DNA from: a virus
Lineage: Duplodnaviria; Heunggongvirae; Uroviricota; Caudoviricetes
Strand: one strand, 5' to 3'
Virus record (IMG/VR): IMGVR_UViG_2681813316_000020
Length of the DNA stretch: 6,199 nucleotides
The notes under the pieces were generated by a model. It worked only from the letters and a program-made list of their open reading frames with translations. It did no database searches and was not told the origin of the DNA. The position numbers and the translations under genes were made by a program. Each line of letters begins with the position of its first letter. Within the stretch, counting starts at the first letter, position 1. This document shows, in pieces, positions 1 through 6,199 of this stretch.

Positions 1-39
1 CAGGCATCAGTATCAGCTGAATTTTATAACCCATATACG

Positions 40-63
40 GGCGCCAGAAATGGCGCCTTTTTT
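40..63 (+). terminator. Rho-independent terminator hairpin ending the upstream (tail gene) transcript
   Basis: Seen in sequence: 7-bp perfect stem GGCGCCA (40-46) / TGGCGCC (51-57) with a GAAA loop, followed directly by a T6 run (58-63). The lom-like RBS and ATG follow about 25 nt later. Confidence 0.6.
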
Positions 64-87
64 ATTGCAGAAAAGCGAGAGGTAATT

Positions 88-417
88 ATGCGTAAAGTTT
101 GTGCCGCCATTTTGTCCGCAGCCATTTGTCTGGCCGTATCCGGTGCGCCTGCATGGGCGTCTGAACATCAGTCCACGCTGAGCGCGGGGTATCTTCATGC
201 CCGGACGAACGTTCCCGGCAGTGATGATCTGAACGGGATTAACGTGAAATACCGTTATGAGTTTACGGACACACTGGGGCTGGTGACGTCATTCAGCTAT
301 GCAGGAGACAAGAATCGCCAGCTTACCCGTTACAGCGATACCCGCTGGCATGAAGATTCCGTGCGTAACCGCTGGTTCAGCGTGATGGCGGGGCCGTCTG
401 TGCGCGTGAATGAATAA
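88..417 (+). pseudogene. lom: Lom/Ail/OmpX-family outer-membrane protein, 3'-truncated remnant (109 codons)
   Basis: GAGAGG Shine-Dalgarno at 77-82, five nt before the ATG at 88. N-terminal signal peptide MRKVCAAILSAAICLAVSGAPAWA. Translation resembles phage lambda Lom (GINVKYRYE..., SVMAGP motifs) as I remember it, but stops at 109 aa where family members are about 170-206 aa, so the 8-strand barrel cannot be complete. Position before stf matches lambda gene order. Confidence 0.7.
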
Positions 418-485
418 AAGGAATTGTCCAGCTCAGTAGTGCAACCAACAGCGCATCTGAAACGCTTGCCGCGACACCGAAAGCA

Positions 486-1721
486 GTGAAAGCAGCTAAT
501 GATAATGCGAATGGTCGGGTACCTTCTGCCCGTAAGGTGAATGGTAAGGCGCTTTCAGCGGATATAACACTGACGCCGAAAGATATTGGTACGCTTAACT
601 CAACAACAATGTTATTCAGCGGTGGTGCTGGTTGGTTCAAATTAGCAACGGTAACCATGCCACAGGCGAGTTCTGTTGTTTCAATTACGTTGATTGGTGG
701 CGCGGGATTTAACGTGGGGTCACCTCAACAGGCAGGTATATCTGAACTTGTTTTGCGTGCAGGTAATGGTAATCCGAAGGGGATTACTGGTGCTTTATGG
801 CAGCGCACATCGACAGGGTTTACAAATTTTGCCTGGGTCAATACATCTGGTGATACTTACGATATTTACGTTGCAATCGGAAATTATGCGACTGGTGTAA
901 ATATTCAATGGGATTATACCAGTAATGCCAGCGTGACGATTCATACGTCACCAGCATATTCAGCTAATAAGCCGGAAGGGTTAACGGACGGTACAGTTTA
1001 TTCACTCTATACGCCATCAGAGCAGTTTTATCCGCCTGGCGCACCAATCCCGTGGCCATCAGATACCGTTCCGTCTGGCTATGCCCTGATGCAGGGGCAG
1101 ACTTTTGACAAATCTGCATACCCGAAACTTGCAGCCGCTTATCCGTCAGGCGTGATCCCTGATATGCGTGGCTGGACGATTAAGGGCAAACCCGCCAGTG
1201 GTCGTGCCGTATTGTCTCAGGAACAGGACGGCATTAAATCGCACACCCACAGCGCCAGCGCATCCAGTACGGATTTGGGGACGAAAAACACATCGTCGTT
1301 TGATTACGGAACCAAATCCACGAATAACACCGGGGCGCATACCCATAGTATTAGCGGGACTGCAAATAGTGCCGGTGCGCACCAACACAAGAGTTCCGGT
1401 GCATTTGGTGGCACGAACACGAGCATTTTCCCTAATGGTTATACCGCGATTTCAAATCTAAGCGCGGGGATTATGAGCACAACAAGCGGTAGTGGCCAGA
1501 CTCGTAATGCAGGGAAGACATCATCAGATGGTGCTCATACCCACTCGCTGTCCGGCACTGCTGCAAGCGCAGGCGCACATGCACATACTGTCGGTATTGG
1601 TGCTCATACGCACTCCGTTGCGATTGGTTCACATGGACACACCATCACCGTTAACGCTGCTGGTAACGCGGAAAACACCGTCAAAAACATCGCATTTAAC
1701 TATATTGTGAGGCTTGCATAA
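486..1721 (+). CDS. stf: Phage side tail fibre protein Stf, C-terminal portion (N-terminally truncated; reading frame open from 414 with no upstream start)
   Basis: Translation carries the conserved [21 protein letters not shown] motif just upstream of the GTG at 486 (in frame from 420). It also has the tail-collar segment [65 protein letters not shown], repeated HxH motifs, and the C-terminal end [22 protein letters not shown], all matching lambda Stf as I remember it. The only in-frame starts are GTG 486 and ATG 609, so this is a fragment of a normally much longer fibre gene. Confidence 0.85.
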
Positions 1722-2305
1722 TGGCATTCAGAATGAGTGAACAACCACAGACCATAAAAATTTATAATCTGTTGGCCGGAACTAATGAATTTATTGGTGA
1801 AGGTGACGCATATATTCCGCCTCATACAGGTCTGCCAGCAAACAGTACCGATATTGCACCGCCAGATATTCCGGCAGGCTTCGTGGCTGTTTTCAACAGT
1901 GATGAGGCATCGTGGCATCTTGTTGAAGACCATCGGGGTAAAACAGTTTATGACGTGGCATCAGGGGACGCGTTATTTATTTCTGAACTCGGCTCATTAC
2001 CGGAAAATGTTACCTGGTTATCCCCGGAAGGGGAGTTTCAGAAGTGGAACGGCACAGACTGGGTGAAGGATACGGAAGCAGAAAAACTGTTCCGGATCCG
2101 GGAGGCGGAAGAAACAAAAAACAGCCTGATGCAGGTAGCCAGTGAGCATATAGCGCCGCTTCAGGATGCTGTAGATCTGGAAATCGCAACGGAGGAAGAA
2201 ACCTCATTGCTGGAAGCCTGGAAAAAATATCGGGTGTTGCTGAACCGTGTTGATACATCAACTGCACCTGATATTGAGTGGCCTACGAACCCTGTCAGGG
2301 AGTAA
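1721..2305 (+). CDS. tfa: Tail fibre assembly protein (Tfa chaperone), apparently intact, 194 aa
   Basis: Translation [54 protein letters not shown]... is near-identical to lambda Tfa as I remember it. Its ATG overlaps the stf stop (TAATG at 1719-1723), the classic stf-tfa arrangement. Confidence 0.9.
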
Positions 2306-2319
2306 TCATTGGGATTATG

Positions 2320-2352
2320 CCGCAGCACGTCTTAAGCAAGAACGTGCTGCGG
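2320..2352. terminator. Strong hairpin between convergent tfa and methyltransferase genes; possible bidirectional terminator
   Basis: Seen in sequence: perfect 10-bp stem CCGCAGCACG (2320-2329) / CGTGCTGCGG (2343-2352) with a 13-nt loop. A T6 run follows on the plus strand only after an 8-nt gap (2363-2368), so the terminator role is inferred rather than canonical. Confidence 0.4.
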
Positions 2353-2359
2353 TTGGATG

Positions 2360-3028
2360 CTATTTTTTCCCTGAAGCGGAAAACATTACTACAGTACCTT
2401 GAACCTTGGTTTTAACATTCTCGAAATGCTCTGAGAGTATATGTGTTAAGCCTTCTTCGGAATCTTTTGTGTTTGAAAAGATGCCTTTCTGATTGTAAAT
2501 GCGCATCAGTTTTTGACCGAAGCTATTGTGCACAACTCCATCGCCAAGAATTGTGGCTCCGTATAGAGTTCCATCGTCAGTTAAGGCCTGCGCCGCATTG
2601 CGTATTACACAGCTTTTTGTAGATATATTTCCAGGCAGGCAGTGAAGAAGGTAAAACATGGAAATGGAATCAAATTGACCATGTAACGCCGCGGGATAAG
2701 GTTCAAAAACATCATGGCTAATTTTATGTTTAATTTTTGATTCCCCAGCCCTTGTAGATGCCGCGTTCAGGCTAGCTTCGTTCAAATCCATTAAAGATAT
2801 CAGACTACTCTCAGGTACGTGAGTAAGGTAAAACCCAGTTCCAACACCAATATCCAGATGGTTGTTACCTAAATGTTCCAGAAAGTGTGGAAGAAGGTGT
2901 TCCTTTGTAGGACATCCCCATGCAAGCCGATTTGATACTCCCAAAACCCACCAGTCATAAAGCTTTAGGGTAAGTGGTGTGTAAATTTTAGCCCCATCAT
3001 CTGTGTTTTTTTTCATTAATTTCACCAT
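2360..3028 (-). CDS. ybcY: Class I SAM-dependent methyltransferase (222 aa; possible true start at the second Met, 3014-3016)
   Basis: Translation contains the glycine-rich SAM-binding motif I LDIGVGTGF, an acidic post-I residue (LMDLNEA) and a motif II-like FDSISMFYLLHC. The gene symbol is assigned by synteny only (tfa - methyltransferase - tfaX - appY - ompT as in the E. coli K-12 DLP12 right arm), not by sequence recall. The first ATG has no obvious SD; the second Met is preceded by GGTGA. Confidence 0.75.
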   Translation of the reverse strand: MVKLMKKNTDDGAKIYTPLTLKLYDWWVLGVSNRLAWGCPTKEHLLPHFLEHLGNNHLDIGVGTGFYLTHVPESSLISLMDLNEASLNAASTRAGESKIKHKISHDVFEPYPAALHGQFDSISMFYLLHCLPGNISTKSCVIRNAAQALTDDGTLYGATILGDGVVHNSFGQKLMRIYNQKGIFSNTKDSEEGLTHILSEHFENVKTKVQGTVVMFSASGKK

Positions 3029-3084
3029 GTTATAGTTTTATTTGTGAATTAAATCAATTATGGCAATGAATTACAAGGGGTTAA

Positions 3085-3345
3085 ATGCTGCCGCAGCATA
3101 GCGATATTGAAATAGCCTGGTATGCTTCAATACAGCAGGAGCCGAATAGCTGGAAGACCGTCACCACACAGTTCTACATCCAGGAATTCAGTGAGTATAT
3201 TGCGCCACTGCAGGATGCTGTAGATCTGGAAATCGCAACGGAGGAAGAAAGATCGTTGCTGGAAGCCTGAAAAAAGTATCGGGTGCTGCTAAACCGTGTG
3301 GACACTTCCGTAGCACCAGATATCGAGTGGCTTATTCAACCATAA
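3085..3345 (+). pseudogene. tfaX: Tail fibre assembly protein C-terminal remnant interrupted by an in-frame TGA (3268-3270)
   Basis: Bases 3190-3345 are a direct repeat of the tfa 3' end (2141-2305), with a run of about 40 identical nt at 3211-3250 versus 2161-2200. The translation ...[40 protein letters not shown]... continues in the same frame after the TGA; the corresponding tfa codon is TGG (Trp, 2219-2221). The N-terminal 35 codons are unrelated to the tfa at 1721. Symbol by synteny with K-12. Confidence 0.7.
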
Positions 3346-3891
3346 TAAACAGTATGTATATCATAGGTTATTAATTGTGAGTTTTTTCGGTGTGTTATTT
3401 GTTTGTTTGATGTTATGCTTTTGCGCCCCAAAAGGTTGTTTAGATGTATTTTATCAATTGATTTTCAATATCGTTTAATAAAGAAAAATTAAGCAAGCTG
3501 GATGTTGGTTTTTTGTTAATTGAATGGTTCTAATAATGTTTTTTTTACTGTTGTTGAATGTGACTTGATAAGAAATGCAAGTAAAAATGATACTCTTTTT
3601 ATTTTAAATTCAAACGGTTGACATATATATAGCAAGAGGTTTCAGGTGCGTTGTAGTGAGTTTATGTTAATAAAAAGTATAGTAAGCGTTGAAAAATGTA
3701 ACTTTGAAATACGTTAGAATAAAAAACAATATACATATAATAATTTAATCTTAAATGAAATTTATTAAAATTTGCAAACTATAGTTTTGTGTATAAAAAT
3801 ATAAATGCACATCATCCTGATTATGATTGTGTATTTAATTGGTTGTTATTTGACTGCTATCAACTTGTTTTAATTTTATGATAGGTGCAAG
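3346..3891 (+). promoter_or_regulatory. Very AT-rich upstream/leader region of appY (promoter and probable nucleoid-protein silencing region)
   Basis: About 550 bp non-coding and strongly AT-rich by eye (roughly a quarter to a third GC), with many A/T tracts. It contains a consensus -35 hexamer TTGACA (3618-3623) but no well-spaced -10 that I can pair with it. appY is known to be H-NS repressed and ArcA/RpoS controlled (established knowledge); exact sites are not resolved here. Confidence 0.4.
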
Positions 3892-4641
3892 ATGGATTAT
3901 GTTTGCTCCGTAGTTTTCATCTGTCAATCATTTGATTTAATTATAAACAGGAGAGTTATCTCGTTCAAAAAAAATTCATTGTTTATTGTAAGCGACAAAA
4001 TTAGAAGGGAGTTACCAGTATGCCCCTCTAAACTAAGAATTGTTGATATAGATAAGAAAACATGTTTATCCTTTTTTATCGACGTGAATAATGAGCTGCC
4101 TGGCAAATTTACTCTTGATAAGAATGGCTATATTGCTGAAGAGGAACCTCCATTATCGCTTGTTTTTTCTCTGTTTGAAGGGATTAAAATAGCAGACTCA
4201 TACTCCCTTTGGTTAAAAGAAAGACTATGTATATCCTTACTTGCCATGTTCAAAAAACGCGAAAGTGTAAATTCTTTTATACTAACAAATATAAATACAT
4301 TCACCTGTAAAATTACTGGAATAATCAGTTTTAATATTGAGCGACAATGGCATTTAAAAGATATTGCGGAATTGATTTATACGAGTGAAAGTTTAATAAA
4401 AAAAAGATTAAGGGATGAAGGAACGTCATTTACTGAAATATTGAGAGATACTAGGATGAGGTATGCAAAAAAACTCATAACTTCAAACTCTTATTCTATC
4501 AATGTCGTAGCCCAGAAATGTGGCTATAACAGTACTTCATATTTCATATGTGCATTTAAAGATTATTATGGTGTCACGCCATCTCATTATTTTGAGAAAA
4601 TAATCGGCGTCACAGATGGAATAAACAAAACAATTGACTGA
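3892..4641 (+). CDS. appY: AraC/XylS-family transcriptional activator AppY (249 aa)
   Basis: Translation [27 protein letters not shown]... matches E. coli AppY as I remember it, with a C-terminal AraC-type HTH region (..[29 protein letters not shown]..). Extremely AT-rich coding sequence. Synteny with ompT as in E. coli K-12. Confidence 0.9.
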
Positions 4642-4845
4642 TAATGTTTATTACAAGTTGTCTACATGTTAATTATAATATTATACAGCGTTTTTTCTGA
4701 TGTGATATTCTGGAACCATTAATTTGTAATTGGGTTGCTGTCGCCTATTTTATACATACTATAATTGATGGTTTTCTATGTGATTTAGTTAATAACCTTC
4801 TGGGTTTATTTTAAGGGTTAATTGTTACATTGAAATGGCTAGTTA

Positions 4846-4874
4846 TTCCCCGGGGCGATTTTCACCTCGGGGAA
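4846..4874. terminator. Hairpin in the convergent appY/ompT intergenic region; putative shared terminator
   Basis: Seen in sequence: TTCCCCG (4846-4852) pairs with CGGGGAA (4868-4874) around a 15-nt loop and is followed by an A/T-rich stretch. It lies 17 nt downstream of the ompT stop on the minus strand and about 200 nt downstream of the appY stop. Confidence 0.4.
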
Positions 4875-4890
4875 ATTTTAGTTGGCGTTC

Positions 4891-5844
4891 TTAAAATGTG
4901 TACTTAAGACCAGCAGTAGTGATGAAGTTATAGTTTTCTATACCTGCTCCATTTTTGCTGTAGTCTGAAGTGTTATTATTGTGATCATAAAGTGAAGTAT
5001 TACCTTTTTTATTCGTAACCCGATTCCATGCGCCTTCAACATAAACTTTTGCGTTAGGTGTGACGTAATAACCTGCATTGACTGCAACAGAATAGTAATT
5101 TTGGTCTTTGACCTTACTGCGATAAGTGATTCTTTTTCCCGGGTCATAGTGTTCATCGTTATCAGATGATTCCACCCAGCCGCTGTATTTAAATGTGCCA
5201 CCGAGTTCAAAATCTTCATAACGATAACTTCCAGTCAAGCCAATGTAGGGCATTTTAAAACGTTGTTTGTAGCCGATTGCCCTTTCTCCATTCGGGAAGG
5301 AGCCGATATCATCTCTGAATCCCTCCTCAGAACTGTAGATATAGGAACCACCTCTGGCTGTAAAGCTATAACGGCTTTCCTGATATCCGGCCATGAGTCC
5401 CAGGCGGTAATTGGGTTCGTTGAGGAGCCAGCCTTTGATATTCAGATCAAATTCGTTGGCATAATTGAGTTGTGTATCAGGGTGTCTACTTTCATCCGTC
5501 CAGGTTCCGGGGTTACTGGAATCCATCCAGTCCTGATCGACCATATTGCCACCTCGGCTGCCGAGAGTTGTCCAGCCAGCAGCCCCGATAGATATCTGGG
5601 GCATCAAATCCCAATTAATTGCACCTTTAATAATTGCAGCGTTATTGAATTTCCAGTCGAGTTGACTGACTTTTCGGCCTCCTTCTTCGGCTAGATAAAC
5701 ACGCTCTTTTGTTTTTCCGCTCAGAGTTCCAAGACTAATGTCCGCATTTATGTTGTCAGGAGTAAACGATAAAGTCTCGGTAGAAGCAAAAGAGCTGATC
5801 GCAATAGGGGTTGTCAGGAATATTCCCAGAAGTTTCGCCCGCAT
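4891..5844 (-). CDS. ompT: Outer-membrane protease OmpT (omptin, protease VII), 317 aa with signal peptide
   Basis: Translation MRAKLLGI.LTTPIAISSFASTETLSFTPDNINADISLGTLSGKTKERVYLAEEGGRKVSQLDWKF...AGLKYTF matches E. coli OmpT as I remember it. GGAG Shine-Dalgarno 7 nt upstream of the ATG (minus strand). Confidence 0.95.
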   Translation of the reverse strand: MRAKLLGIFLTTPIAISSFASTETLSFTPDNINADISLGTLSGKTKERVYLAEEGGRKVSQLDWKFNNAAIIKGAINWDLMPQISIGAAGWTTLGSRGGNMVDQDWMDSSNPGTWTDESRHPDTQLNYANEFDLNIKGWLLNEPNYRLGLMAGYQESRYSFTARGGSYIYSSEEGFRDDIGSFPNGERAIGYKQRFKMPYIGLTGSYRYEDFELGGTFKYSGWVESSDNDEHYDPGKRITYRSKVKDQNYYSVAVNAGYYVTPNAKVYVEGAWNRVTNKKGNTSLYDHNNNTSDYSKNGAGIENYNFITTAGLKYTF

Positions 5845-6106
5845 AAAAGTTCTCCATTCAATCGTTTTAATGATTGAATATGTATTTTTTATATCTAACT
5901 TAATGAGTCAATTACATATTGCTCCACTGTTTATATTTTGTTTAGTATTGAATGATTATCACAATGCGCTATCTGTTTTTGGTTTAATTATCTGTTATTG
6001 TTTCATATTGCGGTTTTACTGTGTGGTTTTTTTATGCTTTTGTGGTGCTTTTATCTATTTGAGTGCCATGCCTTTAGAGGCATATAAGCGAAAATAGCAT
6101 GAGGTT
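5845..6106 (-). promoter_or_regulatory. ompT 5' leader/promoter region, AT-rich, bounded upstream by the IS3 insertion
   Basis: Non-coding AT-rich region immediately upstream of the ompT start (minus strand). Promoter elements are not resolved by eye; the region ends at the IS3 terminus at 6107. Confidence 0.4.
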
Positions 6107-6199
6107 TGATCCTACCCACGTAATATGGACACAGGCCTAAGCGAGGTTCTGGTTTTCAAATTGTTCCGGACTGAGGCCGCCACACCAACTGTGCCGCCG
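6107..6199 (-). mobile_element. IS3 insertion sequence, right-end inverted repeat and adjacent interior (partial; element continues beyond the window)
   Basis: 6107 onward reads TGATCCTACCCACGTAATATGGACACAGGCCTAAGCGAGG..., which matches the reverse complement of the IS3 right terminus as I remember it (IS3-family TGATC... end). The minus-strand translation downstream is the IS3 transposase C-terminus. Confidence 0.8.
6137..6199 (-). CDS. insF: IS3 transposase OrfB (InsF) C-terminal end, partial (5' part outside the window)
   Basis: Minus-strand translation from the window edge reads ...RRHSWCGGLSPEQFENQNLA then stop (TAG = plus-strand CTA at 6137-6139). This matches the C-terminus of IS3 OrfB as I remember it. 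Confidence 0.75.
   Translation of the reverse strand, partial: RRHSWCGGLSPEQFENQNLA

Follow-up and report, generated by a model that had tools for sequence, protein, structure and literature searches.

The locus examined here raises the question of whether two short neighboring reading frames, one related to the outer-membrane protein gene lom and the other to the side tail fiber gene stf, are native genes or the two sides of a deletion. The window, that is, the whole stretch of 6,199 nucleotides that was analyzed, is identical in sequence to the entire draft contig CYBQ01000073.1 of the E. coli assembly GCA_001284265.1. Its ORFs and their matches identified it as the right arm of a lambdoid prophage at the DLP12 site, in the order J end, lom', 'stf, tfa, ybcY, tfaX, appY, ompT, and IS3 end (Table 1). 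The J end was assigned by aligning window positions 3–415 with positions 20001–20415 of the corresponding locus of E. coli M25631H (NZ_CP123059.1; L004), in which gpJ is annotated at 16605–20018. In the J/lom interval, a consensus scan found a hairpin with an 8-pair stem containing 6 G-C pairs and followed by TTTTTATTGC, which may serve as a terminator.

Table 1. Features of the window, with the basis of each assignment
Feature	Position	Strand	Basis or remark
3' end of J (tail-tip gene)	1..20	+	stop TGA 18–20; contig begins here
Putative terminator-like hairpin with T-run, J/lom interval	39..68	+	consensus scan
lom' (truncated Ail/Lom outer-membrane barrel gene)	88..417	+	partial match to PF06316
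Deletion junction	415..416	.	breakpoints by BLAST and MAFFT; flanking sequences
'stf (distal 44% of side tail fiber gene)	416..1721	+	identity to intact stf; Pfam
tfa (tail fiber assembly gene, 194 aa)	1721..2305	+	Pfam Caudo_TAP (PF02413), E 3.7e-45
ybcY (methyltransferase gene)	2360–3028	-	
tfaX	3085–3270	+	
appY	3892–4641		
ompT	4891–5844	-	
IS3 element end	~6114–6199		

The ORF at 88–417 encodes 109 amino acid residues ending in SVRVNE, and its TAA stop codon lies at 415–417. It matched the Ail_Lom family (PF06316) with an E-value of 2.4e-65, including the N-terminal signal peptide region, but the match covered only profile positions 1–109 of 199, whereas the intact lom alleles encode 199 residues and cover positions 1–199. 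The lom' product thus corresponds to Lom residues 1–109, and its DNA was 96–97% identical to annotated lom genes. This bears out the preliminary description, which had traced lom homology up to the stop at 415–417 and had considered 109 codons short for the family. The stop codon itself was made by the join, with T at 415 on the lom side and AA at 416–417 on the other. Intact Lom alleles aligned end to end with the solved structure of lambda Lom (9wso) and with OmpX; what lom' retains is the signal peptide and about one half of the mature barrel. Such a half barrel would not be expected to fold into a functional outer-membrane protein. Judged from its sequence, lom' is a gene fragment and not a functional member of the Ail/Lom family.

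Immediately after an in-frame TGA at 411–413, the stf frame opens at 414, and it contains no internal stop throughout. The first ATG, GTG, or TTG in this frame is GTG 486, as had been proposed, and it lies 24 codons into the homology; the remnant therefore has no start codon of its own at the beginning of the homologous region. Across the 435 codons from 414, 433 of 434 residues were identical to residues 554–987 of M25631H Stf, whose intact length is 987 residues, and the DNA was 99.8% identical to the 3' 1,306 nt of intact stf genes. Pfam analysis detected one Phage_fiber_2 repeat, the Collar domain, and Phage_fiber repeats, which mark the distal shaft and receptor-binding part. The N-terminal attachment domain PF08400 ("prophage tail fibre N-terminal"), which occupies residues 1–134 of the intact 987-residue Stf, gave no Pfam match in the 435-codon remnant. 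The earlier view that only the distal, receptor-binding part of the fiber is left thus agrees with the domain content. A scan of the + strand over window positions 1–2400 found no promoter-like site. Residues 554–987 of Stf would accordingly be encoded by a segment that lacks a start codon, ribosome-binding context, and promoter of its own, as well as the tail-attachment domain. In Ur-lambda, Stf residues 1–94 form a dodecameric collar that anchors the fibers at the gpV–gpM junction (PMC12617516), so any product starting at GTG 486 could probably not be mounted on a virion.

To locate the boundary between the two remnants, the window was compared with E. coli genomes and phages by megablast. 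The lom homology ends at 415, and the stf homology starts at 416, so that stf DNA overlaps the stop codon of lom'. The preliminary description had let stf begin five bases after this stop in a different frame; the difference in frame was correct, but the spacing was not, because the two homologies abut. Both flanks were 96–99.8% identical in DNA to intact genes right up to the junction, which puts it far beyond chance. In the MAFFT alignment of the window with M25631H, a single 1,994-bp gap was found between 415 and 416, corresponding to L004 positions 20416–22409, and the other indels were four in number and only 1–2 bp each. The lost DNA comprises lom nt 329–600, the 64-bp spacer, and stf nt 1–1658, amounting to the 3' 45% of lom and the 5' 56% of stf; the missing stf portion holds PF08400 and two of the three Phage_fiber_2 repeats. 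As a result, lom nt 328 is joined out of frame to stf nt 1659. A length of 1,994 bp is not divisible by three, so the lom and stf frames differ, and a fusion protein is impossible. Collinearity on both sides, one gap, and the absence of extra bases at the junction are what a deletion scar would show, and they support the proposal that one deletion removed the 3' half of lom and the 5' half of stf, including the attachment domain.

The alignment with an intact J-lom-stf-tfa locus that had been suggested thus placed the breakpoints, and the comparison with related strains revealed that an undeleted version exists in E. coli M25631H. This strain shares the order J-lom-stf-tfa-ybcY-tfaX-appY-ompT with the window and is 99.2% identical to it from 416 onward; it differs in having a 199-residue lom product, a 987-residue stf product, and a 194-residue tfa product, and in the 1,994 bp that the window is without. 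Its late operon looks complete, with nohD, terminase, portal, capsid, and tail genes, and J onward. M25631H, Z226-7, and GPEC1446 all match window positions 3–6113 over a stretch that is about 2 kb longer than the window.

We also considered whether both short genes could be native and functional, encoding a short Lom-like protein and a short fiber started at GTG 486. Public annotations do call both ORFs genes, of 109 and 411 aa, and 'stf lacks internal stops and is followed by an intact tfa. Nevertheless, the Lom profile is covered only from 1 to 109 of 199, the stop codon of lom' is a product of the junction, and both the open stf frame and its homology begin 24 codons before GTG 486. The DNA on both sides is 96–99.8% identical to full-length genes, and the promoter-like site that such a fiber gene might use was not found on the + strand between 1 and 2400. 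The preliminary description had named natively short homologues, or one intact gene continuous across 400–490, as observations that would speak against a deletion; the intact homologues encode a Lom of 199 aa and a Stf of 987 aa, and no single gene spanning 400–490 was found. We therefore give the native short genes next to no chance.

Regarding the mechanism of the deletion, the junction reads GTGAATGAAT followed directly by AAAAGGAATTG. The four intact lom alleles that were compared all carry GGTTCAGC after the left breakpoint, and in the reference used for the stf side (L002), the sequence leading up to the right breakpoint ends in AGCACA. Against this reference, the breakpoints shared 0 bp of microhomology, indicating a blunt join; this value depends on a proxy, since the undeleted M25631H is only 95.7% identical to the window over the lom' segment and thus does not represent the direct ancestor. 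No IS sequence was present at the junction, the only IS in the window being the element at its right end, and no recombinase gene was found among the window ORFs. A consensus scan of the whole window for hix/gix-like crossover sites, allowing up to 3 mismatches, returned 0 matches. Since shared bases, an IS, a recombinase gene, and a hix/gix site were all missing, a homology-independent deletion is most likely. The junction is very probably the scar of one 1,994-bp deletion by illegitimate recombination, located at the late-operon end of a lambdoid prophage at the DLP12 site, upstream of appY-ompT. The event would be replication slippage or end-joining without homology.

Several observations could be read in favor of a deletion driven by a Pin/Gin-type invertase, an IS element, or homologous recombination between repeats: pinQ adjoins tfa in related Qin-site prophages, stf has internal Phage_fiber_2 repeats, the right breakpoint falls where such a repeat begins (profile positions 5–41), and a separate lom'::'stf deletion occurs in other strains. 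An invertase crossover was rejected on the result of the hix/gix scan, an IS-mediated deletion was rejected because the sole IS (IS3 end, ~6114–6199) is far from the junction, and a homology-driven deletion was rejected because the breakpoints share no sequence. The segment 416–502 is weakly (75%) similar to an upstream stf repeat, but this similarity concerns stf only and does not involve lom. The separate deletion was found in the Qin-site prophage of the pig isolate Res13-Lact (NZ_CP062895.1; L001) and five sisters, where lom and stf are likewise fused and both annotated as pseudogenes. It lies at another locus, however, and both of its breakpoints differ from those in the window: only about the first 170 nt of lom (~56 codons) remain, and stf is broken about 170 nt further upstream. 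Taken together, a deletion driven by any of these three routes is very improbable. Within L001 6088–7729, the junction reads GAAATACCGTTA joined to ACGGGAAATAC, with a GAAATAC motif on both sides.

Because the window is a whole draft contig, a mis-join by the assembler of two contig ends at repeat boundaries within lom and stf was weighed as another origin of the junction. The contig of 6,199 bp runs between repeats, with the J end on the left and the IS3 end on the right; many contigs of other assemblies stop exactly at the position equivalent to window 415, and lom is often a site of contig breaks, as reflected in many "partial" Lom proteins of various lengths. However, the identical junction was found in four contigs, with at least two further assemblers involved, and k-mers spanning the junction are impossible from an intact locus. 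A second isolate (CYEI01000057.1) carries the exact junction and differs from the window by 4 SNPs in 6,147 bp. A Logan k=31 contig from an independent assembly of run ERR137790 shows the junction as well; this contig begins at window position 386, in lom and 30 nt to the left of the junction, and extends to 2191 free of mismatches. In addition, the metagenome contig L018, assembled by MEGAHIT (k141), contains the exact junction with J contiguous upstream of lom'; among the contigs with the junction, it is the one that reaches further upstream. An assembly artefact was rejected on account of this recurrence in independent assemblies, and we consider a mis-join highly unlikely.

Of the 49 differences between L018 and the window, 46 fall within 97–311, and the junction and the sequence to its right are nearly identical. 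The 5' end of lom together with J in L018 is therefore a different allele; in the comparison of L018 1–1700, its J 3' region reached only 74–89% identity to J in four other loci. The background of the scar in L018 is therefore a mosaic that arose through recombination on its upstream side. The recurrence of the junction and this upstream mosaic lead us to consider the deletion as real, inherited, and old enough for recombination to have taken place upstream of it.

The deletion allele is rare, and all occurrences of it found here come from short-read assemblies. A 171-bp query had no match running across the junction in 5,426 complete E. coli genomes, and the exact junction was absent from the GTDB species-representative genomes and from the JGI metagenome contigs. 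About twenty draft contigs with another lom allele end exactly at the position equivalent to window 415. This allele is 95.4% identical in DNA to window positions 3–415, encodes the same 109 aa, and is the intact lom in the Qin-site prophage of complete genomes (L016). The contig end at 415 is independent of k, which points to a fork in the assembly graph between 415 and 416. On the simplest reading, the genomes with contigs ending at 415 would hold both an intact lom and the deleted allele.

The surroundings of the scar assign the window to a known prophage locus, that of the argU-side lambdoid prophage whose end lies at appY/ompT. Positions 1867–6113 were 98.99% identical to the 581.5–585.9 kb region of MG1655, annotated as the cryptic prophage DLP12, and the tfaD-ybcY-tfaX-appY-ompT synteny characteristic of this site was present along with this high identity to K-12. 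In K-12 MG1655, the cryptic DLP12 (aaaD'-tfaD-ybcY'-tfaX-appY-ompT) has likewise decayed by an internal deletion at the same locus; the K-12 deletion is much larger, with a terminase fragment fused into tfa at the position equivalent to window 1867, and J, lom, and stf are lost. The Qin-site prophage of E. coli 042 has the same J-lom-stf-tfa order as the window and retains intact lom (199 aa) and stf (987 aa).

A second, independent deletion was observed at the DLP12 site, in which nohD is joined to stf with the right breakpoint at the position equivalent to window 520. It was found in three loci; nohD (Nu1-like) is fused in frame to distal stf, which in one of them (L022) gives a 568-aa ORF with Phage_Nu1 and Collar domains. 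This nohD'::'stf allele lacks about 20.7 kb of head and tail genes, and the DNA that follows it downstream shares 99.85% identity with the window. In two complete genomes, HCM-25C-3 and 300490, the match to the window begins only at 517.

Downstream of the scar, tfa lies directly after stf, its ATG at 1721 overlapping the stf stop, and it is full length at 194 aa, as in the undeleted M25631H locus. In the window, ybcY is an intact 222-aa ORF for a class I SAM-dependent methyltransferase. The K-12 MG1655 annotation lists this gene as a pseudogene, and that of M25631H lists it as frameshifted; the window differs from M25631H here by a 2-bp indel at 3013. Cross-matches to other loci suggest direct repeats of ~84–85% identity between the 3' end of tfa (2129–2285) and the tfaX fragment (3178–3334). 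These tfa/tfaX repeats flank ybcY, which is in the opposite orientation, and their arrangement suggests that ybcY was gained by insertion or by recombination of two tfa copies. The contig terminates within the terminal part of an IS3-like element upstream of ompT. At this position, the ompT-envY spacer runs on in M25631H and K-12, and the insertion of the element accounts for the stop of the draft contig there.

The preliminary description further took the scar as a sign of a defective prophage; this does not follow from the scar. The lom gene is taken to be an accessory gene that is expressed in the lysogen. On its upstream side, the window begins within J, of which it contains just the final 20 bases, so the rest of the prophage lies outside it. 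Laboratory lambda carries an stf frameshift, has no side fibers, and is fully viable (PMC12617516). For these three reasons, a defective state cannot be derived from the junction. The comparison of lambda PaPa with Ur-lambda is close to the present case in that side fibers were lost through an stf mutation and other tail genes need not be affected (PMC12617516); the difference is that the lambda PaPa mutation is a frameshift with all of the DNA retained, whereas in the window, parts of stf and lom were physically deleted.

Several independent deletions at this locus all spare the distal stf/tfa end, which could be other than chance and would be compatible with a retained role of 'stf-tfa. The cassette might then not be inert: a 411-aa fiber tip started at GTG 486, together with Tfa, may occupy or mask a surface receptor and thereby exclude other phages, or the cassette may act as a recombination donor with which incoming lambdoid phages exchange their host range. 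We regard such a role as having a slim chance.

The lom'::'stf arrangement is a case of ordinary deletional decay of a prophage, and its novelty is confined to an allele of familiar type that had not been annotated before. The ORFs 88–417 and 486–1721, labeled "outer membrane precursor Lom" and "phage protein" in the public record, should be annotated as the pseudogene fragments lom' and 'stf. Beyond this correction of the annotation, the significance of the finding is small. The DLP12 site now presents a series of alleles, comprising the intact locus of M25631H, the loss of 2 kb described here, the loss of about 20.7 kb, and the K-12 state, and this series may provide a marker for lineages or illustrate, on a small scale, how a prophage decays step by step.
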